DNA from: a virus
Lineage: Duplodnaviria > Heunggongvirae > Uroviricota > Caudoviricetes
Direction: 5' to 3' (one strand)
Virus record (IMG/VR): IMGVR_UViG_2675903433_000026
Span: 1 to 22,141 of that record
Length of the DNA stretch: 22,141 nucleotides
Each line of letters begins with the position of its first letter. The first letter of the stretch is position 1. The translations under genes were made by a program, and so were the position numbers. This document shows positions 445 through 8,300 of this stretch, in pieces. Below the pieces are notes generated by a model. The model was not told the DNA's origin, did not search any database, and saw only the letters and a program-made list of their open reading frames with translations.

Positions 445-1443
445 TCAATCATTACCGCGCGACGGTTTCTGCGTGATAAACGTTTCAAGCATCTTTTCCG
501 CAATTGCCGACCAGGTGTGACACTGGACCTTTTCAGCATTTTTCACGCGATCAACGCGAGCAATAACCTCATCCCAATCAATCCGCGACTTGATAACCAT
601 ATGGTTCACCAAAGCCAGGCGATCTGGCGGAAGGCAATCTGGCGGCGTTAATATCAACGCCCCACACATTGCCGCCTCAAGAACAGTTAATCCAAGGCTT
701 TCGGGATGCGTAACGATAAAAACGTCACTCTTACGCAATTCAGCTGCAAATTCGGTTGCTGGTACCGGCGTCCGTCTGTATGGAGTTACCGAAATATTCC
801 CCGGATCAATGGTAACCAATCCGTCATCGGTCAACGTTCTGGCCTCATACGGAACGGTCAGACGCTGAAGGTTCATAAGGATACTTAAGGAGTGATCAAA
901 CCCACTAACATCAAATGCAGCGTGGTCTACAAAAATACGCAGAACATCGTCTGTCTTGATTTCCAGATGGAACAGTTCCTGATTCGCTGCCCATCCAACA
1001 TGTTTGTTAAAGCGATTATGACGCTCTAACCTGCCGGGATTATCCAGGTACCGCCAGGTATCATCGCGGACAGTAAAAGTAATATCGACTGGTGCCGAAT
1101 CCAGCATAGAACCGTCATATACCTGGGCTACCCATCCAGAGAATCGGCGACACAGTTGCATGCCTATTTCCCTGGGTACCGTAGTAAAATACCTCAATCC
1201 TGGTGCCAAAATGGCCTTCGCAGAACATGCGGTCGCAGCAGTCAACACAGCTTCAACATAATCCTCCGGGCTTTCGACGCCAGGGGAATATGGACGATGG
1301 TATTGCAATGTTACCCCTGCCTCACTAAAGGCGCAGGCCAGGTTATAAGCCCACATTTCCGTATATGTTTTCACATCACTGATGGCTTCAAATTTTCGCC
1401 CAATGATCAGGATGTTCATCGGCTTTTCCTCATTCCATTGCAT
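445..1443 (-). CDS. GT-B fold glycosyltransferase-like protein (332 aa) in the 'downstream of ban' position
   Basis: ATG overlaps the ban stop (ATGA); AAGAGGA Shine-Dalgarno upstream. C-terminal HPESLGLTVLEAAMCGALIL resembles the GT4/GT1 E-x7-E donor-binding motif; N-terminal MNILIIG resembles a Rossmann start. Function assigned from motifs only. Confidence 0.55.
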   Translation of the reverse strand: MQWNEEKPMNILIIGRKFEAISDVKTYTEMWAYNLACAFSEAGVTLQYHRPYSPGVESPEDYVEAVLTAATACSAKAILAPGLRYFTTVPREIGMQLCRRFSGWVAQVYDGSMLDSAPVDITFTVRDDTWRYLDNPGRLERHNRFNKHVGWAANQELFHLEIKTDDVLRIFVDHAAFDVSGFDHSLSILMNLQRLTVPYEARTLTDDGLVTIDPGNISVTPYRRTPVPATEFAAELRKSDVFIVTHPESLGLTVLEAAMCGALILTPPDCLPPDRLALVNHMVIKSRIDWDEVIARVDRVKNAEKVQCHTWSAIAEKMLETFITQKPSRGND

Positions 1444-2807
1444 TAATAATCCTCTTGCCAGTCAGCACCGGCATAGTTATCAAACCGTGAGTATTGGCCG
1501 TTAAAAGCCAATCTCACCGTGCCAATTGGGCCATTTCGTTGCTTTCCGATAATTACCTCGGCAATGCCCTTCATTTCGCTATCCGGGTGATAAACTTCGT
1601 CGCGATACAGAAACATGATCAGGTCTGCGTCCTGCTCAATTGCTCCTGATTCACGTAAATCTGAATTTACCGGTCGTTTGTCCGCACGCTGTTCAAGCGA
1701 TCGATTAAGTTGTGACAATGCCACCACCGGTACTTGTAATTCCTTCGCCAACGCCTTCAGTGAGCGAGAAATCTCGGCAATTTCCAGCGTTCGGTTATCT
1801 TGCAGCTCGGGGACGCGCATAAGTTGCAGGTAGTCGATCATAATCATGCTCAAACCACCATTTTCTTTATAAACACGACGAGCGCGGGAACGAAGCTCTG
1901 TAGGTGTCAGGGCGCTTGAGTCATCAATAAAAATATTCTGCTTGTCCAACAGAATACCCATTGCGCCAGAAACCCGCGCCCAATCATCGTCGTTAAGTTG
2001 CCCCGTTCTAATACGAGTCTGATCAACGCGTGCAAGAGAAGCCAGTGAGCGCATCATCAGCTGGTGGCTCGGCATCTCAAGGCTAAAAACCAATACGGGC
2101 TTATCGTTACGAACTGCGGCATTTTCGACGAGATTCATCGCAAACGTGGTCTTCCCCATAGATGGGCGGGCGGCGACAATGATGAGATCGGACGGCTGAA
2201 GCCCCGCCGTCTTCTTATTGAGATCGGTAAATCCCGTATCAAGCCCCGTTACACCATCATGCGGTCGCTGAAACAACTCTTCTATGCGAGATACCGTTGC
2301 ATCGAGAATGCTGGCGATATCTTTTGGACCACTACCGCTCTTTTGTCGTTTTTCAGCTATTTCAAAAACGCGGCGCTCGGCCATATCCAGCAATTCATTG
2401 CTGCCCCTGCCATCCTGCGCATATCCAGCTTCGGCTATTTCATTTGCGACGGAAATCATTTCACGAACAACCGCGCGTTCACGAACGATATCCGCATAAG
2501 CACAAATATTTGCCGCGCTGGGCGTGTTCTTTGACATCTCCGCAAGGTACGCAAAACCACCGGCGCGTTCTAATTTACCGTTCTGTTCAAGTGCTTCAGC
2601 AAGTGTTATCAAATCAATCGGTTTGCCATGACTTAATAACCTCTCCATCTCACTGAAAATTTCACGATGAGCACTGGTATAAAAATCATCAGCAACTATA
2701 CGATCTGCAACTTCATCCCAGCGGCAGTTATCAAGCATTAAGCCACCAAGCACAGCTTGTTCTGCACTAAGGGAATTTGGCATGGATTCAAGAGGGGATG
2801 CAGACAT
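1443..2807 (-). CDS. ban: Replicative DNA helicase, DnaB family (Ban-like, 454 aa from the ATG at 2807)
   Basis: Walker A ARPSMGKTTFAMN, DnaB N-terminal domain (AEQAVLGGLMLD...), conserved RecA-like core. GGTGGAG Shine-Dalgarno before the ATG at 2807; the ORF track extends to a TTG at 2822. Confidence 0.9.
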   Translation of the reverse strand: MSASPLESMPNSLSAEQAVLGGLMLDNCRWDEVADRIVADDFYTSAHREIFSEMERLLSHGKPIDLITLAEALEQNGKLERAGGFAYLAEMSKNTPSAANICAYADIVRERAVVREMISVANEIAEAGYAQDGRGSNELLDMAERRVFEIAEKRQKSGSGPKDIASILDATVSRIEELFQRPHDGVTGLDTGFTDLNKKTAGLQPSDLIIVAARPSMGKTTFAMNLVENAAVRNDKPVLVFSLEMPSHQLMMRSLASLARVDQTRIRTGQLNDDDWARVSGAMGILLDKQNIFIDDSSALTPTELRSRARRVYKENGGLSMIMIDYLQLMRVPELQDNRTLEIAEISRSLKALAKELQVPVVALSQLNRSLEQRADKRPVNSDLRESGAIEQDADLIMFLYRDEVYHPDSEMKGIAEVIIGKQRNGPIGTVRLAFNGQYSRFDNYAGADWQEDY

Positions 2808-3087: not shown

Positions 3088-3163
3088 TGGTGGCCCCTAC
3101 CGGACTTGAACCGGTGACCGTGCGATTATGAGTCGCCAGCTCTAACCACTGAGCTAAAGGGCC
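3088..3163 (-). tRNA. tRNA with CAU anticodon, most similar in pattern to the lysidine-type tRNA-Ile2 (ileX-like); tRNA-Met not excluded
   Basis: 76-nt cloverleaf read on the minus strand: acceptor GGCCCTT/AGGGGCC, anticodon arm GGCGACTCATAATCGC, T-loop TTCAAGT, encoded CCA. Confidence 0.85.
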
Positions 3164-3190: not shown

Positions 3191-4018
3191 TTATTTCACC
3201 GGAACAAACGGAACAGCGGTATTACTGGTCATATACTTCGGTAATGTACCGTTCCATTTGTTGATCGCTTCCAAGTCCATAACACCTGGGTTCTGGCGCA
3301 GAGCTTCACCACGTAAACGAATGGCATCAGCTTCGGCCTGGGCTTTTGTGCGAATAGCATCAGCCTGTCCGGCAGCTTCCGCGCGCAGCATGTTGGCCTC
3401 TGCTTCACGTTGTTTGACCTCTTGCTCGCGTTGCAGGGTTTTTTGGTTTGCCGTGACTTTGGCGTTAATACTGTCAATAACTGTTGGCGGGTATTCTGGC
3501 TTACCTACATAAGAGAGGCTCATCACCTGAATGCCGATTGGCGTCATTTCTTCCTGAATGTCTTTAAGGGCTGCATCAAGCAATTCAGATTTGCCACCGT
3601 CGATAAATTTGTCGGTGGTCATTTTGCTGGCTAATCGGTTCAGAGCATCTGCAACCTTCTGGCGTAGATCGGTATCAGTAATATCATCTACACCTTTGCG
3701 ATAGGTCTGAAATACCGTTGTGACTTTTGCTGGATCAACCTTGTAGGCTACGCCGATGTGGTAACCAATGGTTGTTCCGTCGCTCATCTGGAAGCTGAAC
3801 GGCTCATCGTATGTCTTCATTTGCTTAAAGGTCGGGAAGATATAAACTTCAGTATTCAAGCCTGTCCAGTAGCGACCAACGCCAACTACTTCACCGATAC
3901 CTTTATCATCCCCCAGCTTATTTACTTTGATCCCTACGTTACCTGGCTCTACCCGATCGCATCCGGTCAGACATAAAGAACCCAAAATAATCGCTGCACT
4001 AATCAACGTTTTTTTCAT
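3191..4018 (-). CDS. plp: Lipoprotein, SPFH/band-7-like (plp-like, 275 aa)
   Basis: Signal peptide with lipobox LTGC (MKKTLISAAIILGSLCLTGC); C-terminal coiled-coil Ala/Glu-rich region; AGGAAA Shine-Dalgarno. Gene symbol is by position and similarity to the P1 arrangement. Confidence 0.7.
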   Translation of the reverse strand: MKKTLISAAIILGSLCLTGCDRVEPGNVGIKVNKLGDDKGIGEVVGVGRYWTGLNTEVYIFPTFKQMKTYDEPFSFQMSDGTTIGYHIGVAYKVDPAKVTTVFQTYRKGVDDITDTDLRQKVADALNRLASKMTTDKFIDGGKSELLDAALKDIQEEMTPIGIQVMSLSYVGKPEYPPTVIDSINAKVTANQKTLQREQEVKQREAEANMLRAEAAGQADAIRTKAQAEADAIRLRGEALRQNPGVMDLEAINKWNGTLPKYMTSNTAVPFVPVK

Positions 4019-4235
4019 TAATTAATTTCCTGGTTTTTTCACGAAAAAAGACTACTGCGAAAGCCGGGTAAATGAGCGCGAGAAGGACTCCCAACAATAC
4101 AAGTATTGTGCTGTTAGATGAGATCATATTTGGCAAAAGCCAAACATACAGAACCAGTGACACAATCAAACAGAGGACGGCATAAATATATAACCGCACC
4201 CATAGCGTTCGACATTTGTTCGGATTGTTCTGCAT
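3999..4235 (-). CDS. Small two-helix membrane protein (upl-like, 78 aa)
   Basis: Two hydrophobic stretches (IYAVLCLIVSLVLYVWLL and ILVLLGVLLALIYPAFAVVFF); GGAG Shine-Dalgarno; overlaps the plp start by 20 nt. Confidence 0.5.
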   Translation of the reverse strand: MQNNPNKCRTLWVRLYIYAVLCLIVSLVLYVWLLPNMISSNSTILVLLGVLLALIYPAFAVVFFREKTRKLINEKNVD

Positions 4236-4464
4236 CCTCTCACTCCATTATTTAACGAATAAAAAAGCTGCGGTGCCGGGTTCCTCCCGGTGTCCTTTGG
4301 CTGGTTATCCACCGTGGACGTGGAAACAAGGAGAAATAATGGACAGATATAACCATTTCCCCGCGTGCGCTTAGCCGCATTCACCGCAACGGAAAGAGCA
4401 TTCTTGGTGGACCTGTAGATTGGGATATGAACCCGTTACAGGAGAATGCTCTTACCTGTTATGT

Positions 4465-4540
4465 TGGTGCCGATTAACGGGATCGAACCGCTGACCATTC
4501 GCTTACAAAGCGACTGCTCTACCAACTGAGCTAAATCGGC
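4465..4540 (-). tRNA. tRNA-Thr (anticodon UGU)
   Basis: 76-nt cloverleaf: acceptor GCCGATT/AATCGGC, anticodon loop TTTGTAA, T-loop TTCGATC, encoded CCA. Confidence 0.85.
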
Positions 4541-4544
4541 AATG

Positions 4545-4631
4545 TGGTGGGGAGTGATGGAGTCGAACCACCCGAGTCGCAATGACAGTAGATTTACAGT
4601 CTACCCCGCTACCCCTACGGACTAACTCCCC
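4545..4631 (-). tRNA. Type II tRNA with GUA anticodon (tRNA-Tyr-like) with a long variable arm and atypical D arm
   Basis: 87 nt: acceptor GGGGAGT/ACTCCCC, anticodon stem GTAGA/TCTAC with loop CTGTAAA, long variable stem-loop (GTC ATTGC GAC), T-loop TTCGACT, encoded CCA. The D-arm pairing is non-canonical, so identity is less certain. Confidence 0.6.
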
Positions 4632-4636
4632 TAAAG

Positions 4637-4711
4637 TGGCGATGGTGGGTGGATTCGAACTACCGACCAGTTGGTTAACAGCCAACTGCTCTACCGCTGA
4701 GCTACACCATC
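4637..4711 (-). tRNA. tRNA-Asn (anticodon GUU)
   Basis: 75 nt: acceptor GATGGTG/CACCATC, anticodon stem GTTGG/CCAAC with loop CTGTTAA, T-loop TTCGAAT, encoded CCA. Confidence 0.85.
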
Positions 4712-5379
4712 ACTTGCCGGGTACGTCTCCGGCGAGGGCTTCCACCTCCGTATGCTTTTCGGCGCACCGCGCCATGGCTGCAATTCGGTAACAGGGGATG
4801 CATAACCCTGGCTTCCAGCGTGATTAGCGCCTTCAGCATGACGGGATATACCCGTAAATTCGTGGAACTGTACCCAAAGTGCTGTTAAGCACCGCTGTTA
4901 CGCTGAAAAGAAAACGCAACAGGAAAGGACGCTGACCAACAGATGGCCCCTTCTCGTTCATCTGGTTAATCACACCAGCGCCCTTACCTGTTGTGCCTCC
5001 CCGTTCCCTAATACACAGACGGGGACACTCTGCGGTCGATTTTTTGACGGGGGACGACTCATACCCCATGGCATCTGGCTTCTTAGGCCGCTACCATCAT
5101 CAGATCATCGTTTGCATTTACTTTAATGGTCAGTTTCTAAACCGCCGCAAAGTCGCTAACCATGACGAAAACCCTGAAAAAAACGCCCACCCGAAGATGG
5201 GCAAACTGGACGCTCGTAACGCACTTCGGCGTTGCCACTTAGGCGCATGGTCAACCTGGCAACTCGGCGTCATGATGGGGAAGGAGTCACTACCCCGCCA
5301 TACTTGCCGCCGCGCCTGTCGCGGCTAACAGCTAAATCGCTCTATAAATCACGATTCATTGAGTCGATATTACACTAAT

Positions 5380-5396
5380 AAATTTATTAGAGCAAT
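5380..5396 (-). promoter_or_regulatory. C1-repressor-type operator (17/17 match) followed by a TAATAT -10-like hexamer, at the head of the tRNA-upl-plp-tRNA-ban operon
   Basis: Minus strand reads ATTGCTCTAATAAATTT then attagtg TAATAT; the operator overlaps the last codons and stop of the methyltransferase gene. Confidence 0.7.
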
Positions 5397-8300
5397 ATAG
5401 CTATAACGTCATGAGCAACACCTCGAGTGTCTCCCTTACAAGACACAGAACGTCTGGCAAAAAGAGGTTCCACTCTGAAGCCACTGTCATGATAAAGCTC
5501 TCTGATGTTTGGCGCGCCACTGTTAGTAATGAGAACTTTCGCACCTCGACGATGAGCATCCGTCAACAGAGACACCAGGCGTTTTTGCTCTTCAAACTTA
5601 AAGTCATGACCGGAATAGTTCGTGAATCCCTCTGTATTTGGAAGCGGTTCATACGGCGGATCGCAAAAGATGACATCTCCTTCTCCGGCAGCTTCAATCA
5701 CCGCTGCAAAATCACCGCATACAAACTCAGACCGCCCTTCCGCACCGAGGAAGGCTTCCATCTCCTGTAATGGGAAATACGGAGTTTTATACTTCCCATA
5801 ACCGACATTGAACTCACCGGCCTGGTTGTAACGCGTCAATCCGTTAAAACAATGTCGGTTCAGGAACAAAAACGCCGCTGCGCGATGTAAATCATCATAG
5901 ACTTGTTTGTTAAACGCATTCCGTACTGCCAGGTATCCTTCCTGTGTGTTGTAGTCCTGGAAGAAACGATGTGCCAGAGTGATAAGTGAATGCGCCTCGC
6001 GTTGCAGAGTCTTGTAAAAGTTAATCAGGTCAGCATTCACATCATTTAGCAGATTTTCCTGGTATCCGGCATTCATGAAGACAGCTCCGCCACCAACGAA
6101 AGGTTCAATCAGGCGCTTCCCTTCTGGCAAATAGCGAAAGATTTGTTCCAGAACACCAAATTTTCCACCAGCCCATTTGAATATGGACCGTTCGAATTCT
6201 GCCGCTGGTTTAACTTTTCGCTCTTTTGTTTCACTCCCTTCCTTCTGCCGACATGCAGCCTTGGCAATCCGATCGCCAATCCAGCGCATTACTGGTATCG
6301 CCATACTATTGCCGATCGCTTTGTAACGCGGTCCGTCAGCTGCAAGCATCGCGGCCTCTTCTTCGCTTAAATCTGGATAGTGATTGCGAAGATATGCCAG
6401 TTCATCTGAATTAACTTTTTTACGCTTTTCCGTCGGGATCAACGTATGCCCATCAGGAAAACCTTGCAGCCTTTCACATTCGACAGGGGTAAGACGGCGG
6501 ACAGCTACTTCTGCGTTTCTTACTTCATAGCAAACAGCTGTTGGATTTTTAGCCATTAGAGATGGTGAAGTATTCTTAGTTGCAGCATGTTGTGTACCGC
6601 TCATACGCTCAGGAAAAGCCAATGTAACAAGATGCTCATGGCTTTCTTGCTCACGTGCCCGCAATGTACCATGCCCTTCTGACCAAAAACCTGCTCCTGT
6701 GCTGCTAAAAACGGCAAGGTCAGTGGCATCTTTAAAATCTCTTGCCTTTACTGTCGATGCGGTTTCATCGTCAATATATTCCCCAAATGCTGCCATCCTG
6801 AAAGCGTTTACGGCTTTCGTCGATTTCATACTGGGTGGCATGTCAGCGTGTAGGCATGGATTTAGGCTTTCGCCACTGATTGCAGCGCCATTTGCAATAA
6901 TGGCGGAAGCGATTTCCTTCTTTTTTCGGCTCGGCGCAATATTCCGGCGCACGCCTTCGAACTCAAAAAGTACCGTTGCGGGATCGAGGTCTGTTCGAGC
7001 ACTTGCGACAACAAACACGCGTCGGCGTCGTTGTGCCACTCCGAAGTATTGGGCATCAAGGATTCTCCAGGCCACCTTTCGCTGCGGTCCATAAATACAA
7101 CCACACTGCGGCCACTTTGGAGCATGGCAACCGGTTTTGCCATCCCACCGCCAGAACGCGTTACTTTTTCCTGATTCAGGTCGATCACCTGGTTCAAATG
7201 GCGCATCTTCTCCAGCCAATCCGGCAAGGAAACATCCGAAGGCGTTATCTGCCGATGACAAGACTCCTGGGACATTTTCCCAGACGATAACGGATGGTTT
7301 GAGAAATGACTCAGCCCGTTTGTCGTCAACTGCATTTGCAAGCTCCACATACTTTAAAGTTAGCGCGCCACGCTCATCATCAAGCCCACCACGTAATCCC
7401 GCGATACTGAATGCCTGACAGTTATGGACCACCGCACCATTGAGGATATAGGAATGATCACCTTCGACTTCTATGTTGTATACAGTATCTAGGCCTACCG
7501 ATTTAAACTCTTTGACTGTTCGTAAAAGCATTCCATGAGCCAATCTTGATTTACGTGACAATTTCTGCGGGCAGATTGTTACCTGATAATAATTCCGTTG
7601 ATTTACCACGCGATCCTCGATCACTTTTTTGGGCTCAACTTCAATAAAGCTGACCGAAGAAACATAACCACAAGTCTGTGACAACCCCGCAACGCCCCAA
7701 GCAAGCGCAGAACTAACACTATTAATTCTAAATCCCGCTTTACCACTTGGTGTCCCATCAGTATCAAGATAGCCTTGTAAAAACACATGACGCAATGGAT
7801 GCGACATCACCCATGCAGGGATACGCTTAGCATGGCTTAACTCGCCAAAATGTTCATTAAGCCAATTGGCATAACACGTATCATTCAAGGTTACTTTGAT
7901 GCTCCCTCGGATTTCGCTTGCCACGGAAAATATGTTTTCTGGTATGCGGCAATGAAACTTTCTCAATTTCTGGCAATTTATGCCAAAAACAACCGCCTTC
8001 TTAGATTTACCTCTCCATCTCCTAATATATCCATCGCCAACATAAGCGCCCGCAAGATACATAGCCTGTTCTTCAGACAAGAACCGAGAACAAATATCTG
8101 GAAATGCAATATTGAAATTAGTTAGAGCGCACCATTGATATCCCGGCATATCACATGCTGCTCGCCATTCCGGTTCAGACAACAACTCTCTCTTAAAATA
8201 TGTGCCATTTTTCCGGGTGTTTTGGGCTTTCCACCGAACAGCCAGGAAGGGATGGTCATTGGTTGTTCTTATACCTAAAGGCTGCCCAACGGCATTAAGT

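Follow-up and report, generated by a model that had tools for sequence, protein, structure and literature searches.

Dbn of phage P1 as a predicted GT-B glycosyltransferase and a possible member of a phage-encoded glycan-building module

The locus described here raises the question of why a glycosyltransferase-like gene should directly follow a replicative helicase gene in a phage genome and what its product might modify. The gene is a minus-strand open reading frame (ORF) of 332 aa at positions 445 to 1443 of a 22,141-nucleotide stretch of viral DNA (IMG/VR record IMGVR_UViG_2675903433_000026; "the window" below), directly 3′ of the DnaB-type helicase gene ban. The window as a whole derives from a P1-like phage-plasmid, with 98 to 99% identity over nearly its full length to Punavirus genomes and many Escherichia coli plasmids. 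The ORF list and sequence comparison with P1 identify the ORF, in this long form, as the orthologue of the phage P1 gene dbn (“downstream of ban”; P1_gp078): the dbn region shares 98.1% DNA identity with P1 and about as much with P7 and RCS47 (~98%), the protein matches the main E. coli/P1-like cluster (2,431 member sequences) at 98% identity, and the gene lies right after ban in the operon controlled by the Oban operator. The product is labeled “function unknown, possible glycosyltransferase” in the P1 record, glt in P7, “putative glycosyltransferase, Dbn” in RCS47, and “glycosyltransferase family 4 protein” in RefSeq. Hence, the original prediction, made from the DNA sequence alone, re-derives an earlier annotation: a putative glycosyltransferase encoded by dbn is already known and is not a discovery. 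What the present comparison suggests beyond these labels is a tie between dbn and three P1 genes located elsewhere, pmgO, pmgP, and pmgQ, and between the resulting module and bacterial polysaccharide clusters of the Kdo (3-deoxy-D-manno-octulosonic acid) type. Neither link was found in the searched literature.

The original prediction rested on an E-x7-E motif and proposed a GT-B fold, both of which are borne out. The motif is part of the segment HPESLGLTVLEAAMCGALIL (residues 246 to 265; window 649 to 708, minus strand), which includes H246, E248 (codon 700-702), and E256 (codon 676-678). An AlphaFold2 model built with 16 homologues (predicted local distance difference test [pLDDT] score of 87.5 and predicted template modeling [pTM] score of 0.85) shows two Rossmann-like halves and a C-terminal helix that crosses back to the N-terminal domain, as expected of a GT-B fold. 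The top Foldseek matches of this model are all GT-B enzymes (E = 1.5e-9 to GlgM), and its best viral match is a giant-virus glycosyltransferase (TM score of 0.76 to 0.80). Among 77 diverse family members, down to 22% identity, D173, H174, H246, E256, and G261 show no variation, and at least 90% retain E248. Since the model matches GT-B enzymes and the motif residues are conserved among orthologues, the GT-B reading passes both tests that had been set for it in advance. These data support the view of Dbn as a cytoplasmic two-domain GT-B glycosyltransferase related to the retaining enzymes of glycosyltransferase family 4 (GT4); the fold and the motif are seen in the model and the alignments, and the activity is predicted from them. 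The 80 P1-like loci contain 53 dbn alleles, none with a premature stop codon, with a crude ratio of nonsynonymous to synonymous polymorphism (pN/pS) of 0.20, and the eight conserved residues that were checked, including D173, H174, H246, E248, and E256, are unchanged in 80 of 80 loci. Thus, dbn is a real gene under purifying selection and not a chance ORF.

The relationship to GT4 is a distant one. Dbn is only 11 to 14% identical to such retaining GT4 enzymes as BshA, PimA, MshA, WaaG, GlgM, and sucrose-phosphate synthase, is shorter (~320 aa), has no evident glycine-rich N-terminal loop, and resembles these enzymes in sequence only along the E-x7-E stretch, which aligns with that of MshA and an Actinobacillus glucosyltransferase (8xsg). 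A search of Protein Data Bank (PDB) chains with the family profile returned the same stretch alone, plus spurious matches to the Rossmann domain of KtrA. One observation weighs against a straightforward assignment to GT4, and a second may do so. The Pfam domain Glycos_transf_1 (PF00534) is matched by residues 229 to 315 only, at 23.8 bits, below its gathering score of 26.4; a few distant family members do exceed this cutoff (such as P0101 with 29.9 bits and P0149 with 28.4). Further, in GT4 enzymes, Arg/Lys residues after the first strand of the C-terminal domain bind the donor diphosphate. At the place of the usual Gly-Arg/Lys, as judged by position rather than by alignment, Dbn has the invariant D173-H174 pair (window 922 to 927, minus strand), found at the end of that strand in the model, followed by a near-invariant D183. 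As these residues appear to replace the basic ones, the type of donor is uncertain, and the Asp-His pair with Asp183 (residues 173 to 184; window 892 to 927) might point to another type of donor or to catalysis assisted by a metal. Among 1.84 billion protein representatives, a profile search retrieved 375 relatives at E ≤ 1e-3 and did not draw in generic GT4 enzymes; by this measure, the Dbn family is a small, discrete clade and not part of mainstream GT4. The broad alignment (A2) of this family was too diverse for pattern scans. Neither the NCBIfam models nor PADLOC recognized anything in Dbn, which leaves a defense-system reading without support. Kinship with WaaS, a K-12 core enzyme of similar length encoded in the same waa cluster as waaZ, was rejected by direct comparison, and WaaG and WaaB align with Dbn at the motif only. 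Several family members have additional domains: P0101 is a tandem Dbn-Dbn protein, others carry C-terminal extensions of ~200 aa, one of which is a methyltransferase, and the 320-kb jumbo Stenotrophomonas phages RAS14 and CM1 encode a 552-aa protein (L097, 4617-6275) whose C-terminal half is Dbn-like (28% identity).

The genomic neighborhoods of these relatives bear on the question of function. Because two scans of IMG/VR yielded P1-like loci exclusively, contexts from other phages were drawn from metagenome contigs and INPHARED. The original prediction implied a tie to the helicase and considered the target not evident from context. The comparison alters both statements: outside the P1 lineage, the Dbn homologue is never found beside a helicase and is found instead beside other glycosyltransferases, which narrows the options and makes DNA modification unlikely. 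A complete cassette with the gene order phrog_4603 (MptE-like), phrog_2111 (MptE-like), Dbn (phrog_2518), and phrog_1962 is present in four unrelated phage lineages: in L012 and L181, which are lambdoid-type contigs, in L004, and in the 111-kb coliphage EP_H11; phrog_4603 is labeled “alpha-2,3-sialyltransferase” and phrog_1962 “glycosyltransferase.” A fifth lineage, L184, encodes an MptE-Dbn fusion together with a phrog_1962 gene. This natural fusion, seen in the metagenomic protein P0089, joins a domain of the MptE type (E = 3e-28) to one of the Dbn type (E = 2e-106). In all these instances (L012, L004, EP_H11, L181, L184, and P0089), Dbn is adjacent or fused to its partners. The joint profile of the two MptE-like/DUF115 partners matches the Kdo III transferase WaaZ of E. 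coli (hhalign probability of 97.4%, E = 1.4e-11) and the Campylobacter sialyltransferase CstII (E = 2.4e-7), and the phrog_1962/PmgQ family matches GT8-type GT-A enzymes, namely, AgtA (E = 1.2e-5), glycogenin, and LgtC.

The same pairing is found in bacteria, where Dbn homologues adjoin an MptE-like/WaaZ_KDO_III gene inside envelope-polysaccharide clusters. The respective cluster in a Francisella contig (L102) includes KdsA, KdsC, KpsF, and KpsC/S-type genes, that in Colwellia-type contigs (L005) includes Wza, and the one in L185 includes an ATP-binding cassette (ABC) transporter. Two unknown proteins of ~320 aa from the bacterial clusters were considered as possible Dbn paralogues and were ruled out by comparison.

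In P1, the counterparts of the other three cassette genes lie outside the region covered by the window, in which local tblastn found no homologue of pmgO, pmgP, or pmgQ. In a P1-like genome, tblastn identified pmgO (38% identity, E = 1e-36), pmgP (55%, E = 3e-64), and pmgQ (47%, E = 2e-59), located in P1 at positions 79592 to 82150 of NC_005856.1 (L101, 1593-4151). They belong to the pmgN-pmgO-pmgP-ppp-pmgQ operon behind the C1 operator Oppp. This operon is encoded on the same strand as dbn, and the baseplate/tail block 5-6-24-7-25-26 lies between the two in the opposite orientation. The distance from dbn to pmgO is ~5.9 kb in 70 of the 72 P1-like loci with enough flanking sequence. PmgO and PmgP, so far named “putative morphogenetic,” resemble CstII/WaaZ-type transferases, and PmgQ is GT8-like.

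The linkage of dbn to ban appears to be incidental, and Dbn does not appear to serve the helicase, both because this linkage is restricted to the P1 lineage, with an inserted ORF interrupting it in a variant, and because the conserved partners of Dbn are the three sugar-transferase genes encoded elsewhere in P1. We propose instead that Dbn is one enzyme of a four-enzyme phage module that builds a glycan together with PmgO, PmgP, and PmgQ. As the last gene of the C1-repressed ban operon, dbn would be switched on once the repressor is lifted; the GT8-like GT-A transferase PmgQ would be supplied from the second C1-repressed operon. The known relatives of PmgO and PmgP use ulosonic acids (Kdo and sialic acid) activated with cytidine monophosphate (CMP), so that the module could assemble a short oligosaccharide from host nucleotide sugars, probably CMP-Kdo and a common hexose donor. 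The bacterial clusters and the fusion protein suggest, by analogy, that Dbn acts adjacent to the step that transfers the ulosonic acid, probably Kdo, where it would probably add a common hexose. This scheme, with Dbn as a GT4-like member of the module and an envelope glycan as the favored acceptor, is our leading interpretation by analogy but a tentative one. As for the acceptor, an envelope glycan linked to lipid, for instance the Kdo/inner-core region of lipopolysaccharide (LPS), is slightly favored over virion proteins, since the cellular relatives all function in envelope polysaccharide synthesis, the cores of LPS and lipooligosaccharide (LOS) are built by the same three enzyme classes, and LPS is the receptor used by P1. 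With such an acceptor, the surface of the infected or induced cell would be changed. This choice is speculative and may well turn out otherwise. The fuller claim, that Dbn, PmgO, PmgP, and PmgQ form an unrecognized phage system which uses host CMP-Kdo (or another ulosonic acid) and a hexose to modify either the LPS inner core or virion proteins, is less likely still. We infer the enzymatic activity, the donors, and the cooperation of Dbn with PmgO, PmgP, and PmgQ in P1.

Several observations count against this proposal. In P1, the four genes are split over two operons, and the lambda-type phosphatase gene ppp occupies the slot that Dbn has in the cassettes; for these reasons, cooperation of the four proteins in P1 is deduced from other genomes, where the cassette is contiguous or fused, as opposed to P1 with pmgO, pmgP, and pmgQ ~6 kb away from dbn. 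In the plasmid-phage contigs L180 and L182, Dbn is present with no recognizable partner within 5 kb. The bacterial homologues belong to capsule or O-polysaccharide clusters, not to the LPS-core (waa) clusters, and several of the phage cassettes are located within virion structural modules or next to them, as in L184 and, with the tail block, in P1, which agrees equally with a virion acceptor. Finally, dbn, pmgO, pmgP, and pmgQ are each nonessential for P1 plaque formation (PMC10695390), so that no phenotype is obvious.

The most serious competitor, although a somewhat unlikely one in our estimate, is glycosylation of the virion, with the module decorating capsid, tail, or baseplate proteins in the cytoplasm prior to assembly and thereby altering stability, adsorption, or immune recognition. 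The glycosyltransferase sets of some mycobacteriophages have been reported to glycosylate virion proteins, and the relatives of the MptE-like/DUF115 domain include the Maf-like chain 5mu5, Maf proteins being the ones that glycosylate flagellin. The top viral fold match, a giant-virus glycosyltransferase, and dispensability in the laboratory are also compatible with such a role. Gene location speaks on both sides. The L184 fusion, with its phrog_1962 and FkbM-type methyltransferase neighbors, lies between unassigned ORFs (among which no head protein was identified) and genes for head closure, a gp10-like protein, and tail completion; the L012 and L181 cassettes are found a few hundred bases upstream of terS/terL/portal, with one or more small ORFs in between; and in P1, dbn and pmgL to pmgQ flank the baseplate/tail block. 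However, accessory genes classically occupy the Q-terS interval of lambdoid phages, which makes the position near terS weak evidence, and the cassette of EP_H11 belongs to an early part of the genome, close to the DNA ligase gene. Moreover, both P1 operons have sigma-70 promoters under C1, which implies early timing as opposed to the late-promoter control of virion genes, the cellular homologues all make envelope polysaccharides, and the searched literature contained no report of glycosylated P1 virion proteins. In L184, the fusion gene and these two neighbors (4304-8180) lie just upstream of the genes for head closure and tail completion.

Other readings do away with the glycan module altogether. 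Dbn might act alone in P1, on a host protein, a small molecule, or RNA, so that the synteny in the cassettes would be historical. The physical separation of dbn from pmgO to pmgQ, the partnerless homologues in L180 and L182, the different neighborhood in L103, with methyltransferases, and the three tRNA genes in the same operon would all fit, but the pairing with the MptE-like protein recurs in bacteria as well as in five lineages of phages and has been fixed by fusion in P0089, pmgO is kept at ~5.9 kb from dbn in nearly all P1-like loci, and nothing positive points to any particular other acceptor, so we regard this reading as rather improbable. Far more improbable is glycosylation of phage DNA, in which Dbn, coexpressed with the helicase, would place a sugar on the DNA as protection against restriction, as in T4 or with the HY126 arabinosyltransferase. 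Only the shared operon with ban would suggest it, and that linkage is confined to the P1 lineage and broken by the inserted ORF in the variant. Matches bearing on DNA glycosylation rank beneath many non-DNA GT4 enzymes and share the fold only, and the partners in other phages are transferases of the glycan type rather than enzymes that hydroxylate or hydroxymethylate bases. Such base-modifying enzymes are required by the known DNA glycosylation systems (PMC13326640). No pyrimidine hydroxymethylase or hydroxylase is listed in the annotation tables of P1 or P1-like genomes or in the cassettes, as judged from reading the annotations and not from a dedicated profile search. It is at least as hard to believe that Dbn is an inactive remnant, that is, a noncatalytic GT-B-fold relic, decayed or structural, carried along with ban. 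Its dispensability, the subthreshold Pfam score, and the apparent loss of the canonical phosphate-binding basic residues would agree with decay, but the gene is under strong purifying selection, a disrupted allele was found in 0 of 80 loci, D173, H174, H246, E256, and G261 are invariant across the 77 diverse homologues, and the family is kept in biosynthetic clusters.

The proposed module can be compared with several known systems. It has the same three enzyme classes as the LPS/LOS core pathways: PmgO and PmgP resemble WaaZ/CstII, Dbn resembles GT4 enzymes (the class of WaaG), and PmgQ resembles GT8 enzymes (the class of LgtC and WaaO/WaaJ). All of these are remote homologues, however, with Dbn being unlike WaaS and matching WaaG over the motif only. 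The bacterial Dbn relatives lie beside an MptE-like gene (L102, L185, and L005) in capsule clusters of the ABC-transporter-dependent (group 2-like) type, which include Kdo synthesis and KpsC/KpsS; unlike these clusters, the phage encodes no export, Kdo-synthesis, or linker genes and would depend on donors and acceptors of the host. In being phage-encoded sugar transferases that are dispensable in the laboratory, the members of the module are similar to Gtr O-antigen conversion systems, T4 DNA glucosyltransferases, and the mycobacteriophage systems. The Gtr systems, though, consist of the membrane proteins GtrA (flippase), GtrB (GT2), and GtrC (GT-C), whereas the Dbn model is compact and soluble and starts with a Rossmann strand; no Gtr-like products are listed in the P1-like annotation. 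The T4-type systems, in turn, need modified-base enzymes, none of which appear in the annotations read here. For the mycobacteriophage systems, we know of no demonstrated homology to Dbn beyond the fold.

The junction of dbn with ban proved to differ from the expected one. In place of the predicted ATGA overlap, the two genes are joined by TAATG (window 1441 to 1445, minus strand), in which the ban stop codon TAA (1445-1443) and the first dbn ATG (1443-1441) share a single base. The dbn start is ambiguous, since this ATG and a second one 24 nucleotides downstream (Met9; 1419-1417) are both preceded by GAGGA. Met9 corresponds to the start in every homologue outside the P1 lineage, and in the AlphaFold2 model, residues 1 to 9 are unstructured and the first 10-residue block is of lower confidence. 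In the P1-like variant L086, a 101-aa ORF (phrog_12809; L086, 7699-8004) is inserted between ban and dbn; it joins dbn exactly at Met9, and its stop codon overlaps Met9 as ATGA. The same insertion is present, judging by the match pattern, in L087 to L090 and L094. By these alignments, the conserved start is Met9, which gives a conserved dbn core of 324 aa (window 445 to 1419, minus strand) with GAGGA at 1431-1427 as its Shine-Dalgarno sequence.

Repressor control, also part of the original prediction, holds at the sequence level. A bivalent C1 operator at 5369 to 5396, detected in an operator scan and equivalent to Oban/Op72 of P1, heads the operon that ends with dbn and carries a perfect ATTGCTCTAATAAATTT on the minus strand. 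The scan found 5 operator-like sites, compared with 0.14 expected by chance. The minus-strand gene order 3′ of this operator is three tRNA genes, a small membrane ORF, an SPFH gene, a fourth tRNA, ban, and dbn. The tRNA-Thr, tRNA-Tyr, and tRNA-Asn array at the operon head occupies positions 4465 to 4711; the leader thus includes tRNA-Asn, tRNA-Tyr, and tRNA-Thr, as opposed to the P1 annotation with Asn and Thr only. The genes for the SPFH-domain protein and the 78-aa membrane protein (3191 to 4235, minus strand) stand in place of tciABC of P1. The fourth tRNA has a CAT anticodon (3088 to 3163, minus strand; tRNA-Ile2 in the P1 annotation). The ban gene itself, whose product matches the Pfam domain DnaB_C with E = 6e-108, spans positions 1443 to 2807 on the minus strand if it starts as the 1,365-nucleotide P1 ban does; the mechanically defined ORF reaches a TTG at 2822. 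A simple promoter scan, which found fewer sites than in shuffled sequences, did not detect P1dbn and P2dbn, the internal promoters that the P1 record predicts, so that constitutive expression of dbn in lysogens is unsupported.

A second bivalent C1 operator (366 to 398) from the same scan lies directly 3′ of dbn, where it marks, by its sequence, the 3′ boundary of the dbn transcription unit and opens a separate c4/icd (immI-like) unit at 113 to 398 on the minus strand, with a C4 antisense RNA at 113 to 198 (Rfam, 70.7 bits) and an a1/b1 target at 266 to 318. The halves of this operator can form a 13-bp hairpin. The c4/icd module, an addition relative to the P1 dbn locus, is likewise found between dbn and baseplate gene 5 in the plasmid NZ_CP027223.1, whereas in P1, gene 5 immediately follows dbn. 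A plus-strand ORF at 78 to 392, to the left of dbn, is probably not a gene and was rejected because the C4 antisense RNA and its targets are encoded here on the opposite strand.

A scan of one genome per species retrieved nothing beyond a P1-like contig from Escherichia and a 209-bp contig that is probably a contaminant. The latter (L014; JQCU01000263.1), from an Acinetobacter idrijaensis assembly, encodes 69 residues that are 99% identical to Dbn and probably represents contamination by a P1-like element or vector. The proposed four-gene system would be widespread in P1-like phage-plasmids and also present in unrelated enterobacterial phages.

P1 ranks among the phages most widely used by geneticists, and phage-plasmids of the P1 type occur very commonly in E. 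coli, as the 2,431 members of the main Dbn cluster show. The comparison presented here would turn dbn, pmgO, pmgP, and pmgQ, four genes without an assigned role, into scattered parts of one cassette that can be covered by a single joint hypothesis. The invariant Asp-His pair could also indicate that the donor or the mechanism is unusual for a GT-B enzyme. If the target is the LPS inner core, the phage would mask or destroy its own receptor in lytic growth; if it is the virion, this would be the first Kdo-type virion glycosylation in a classical coliphage. By altering the LPS receptor or the surface of the particle, the product would in either case matter for superinfection, host range, and the use of P1-like elements as vectors.

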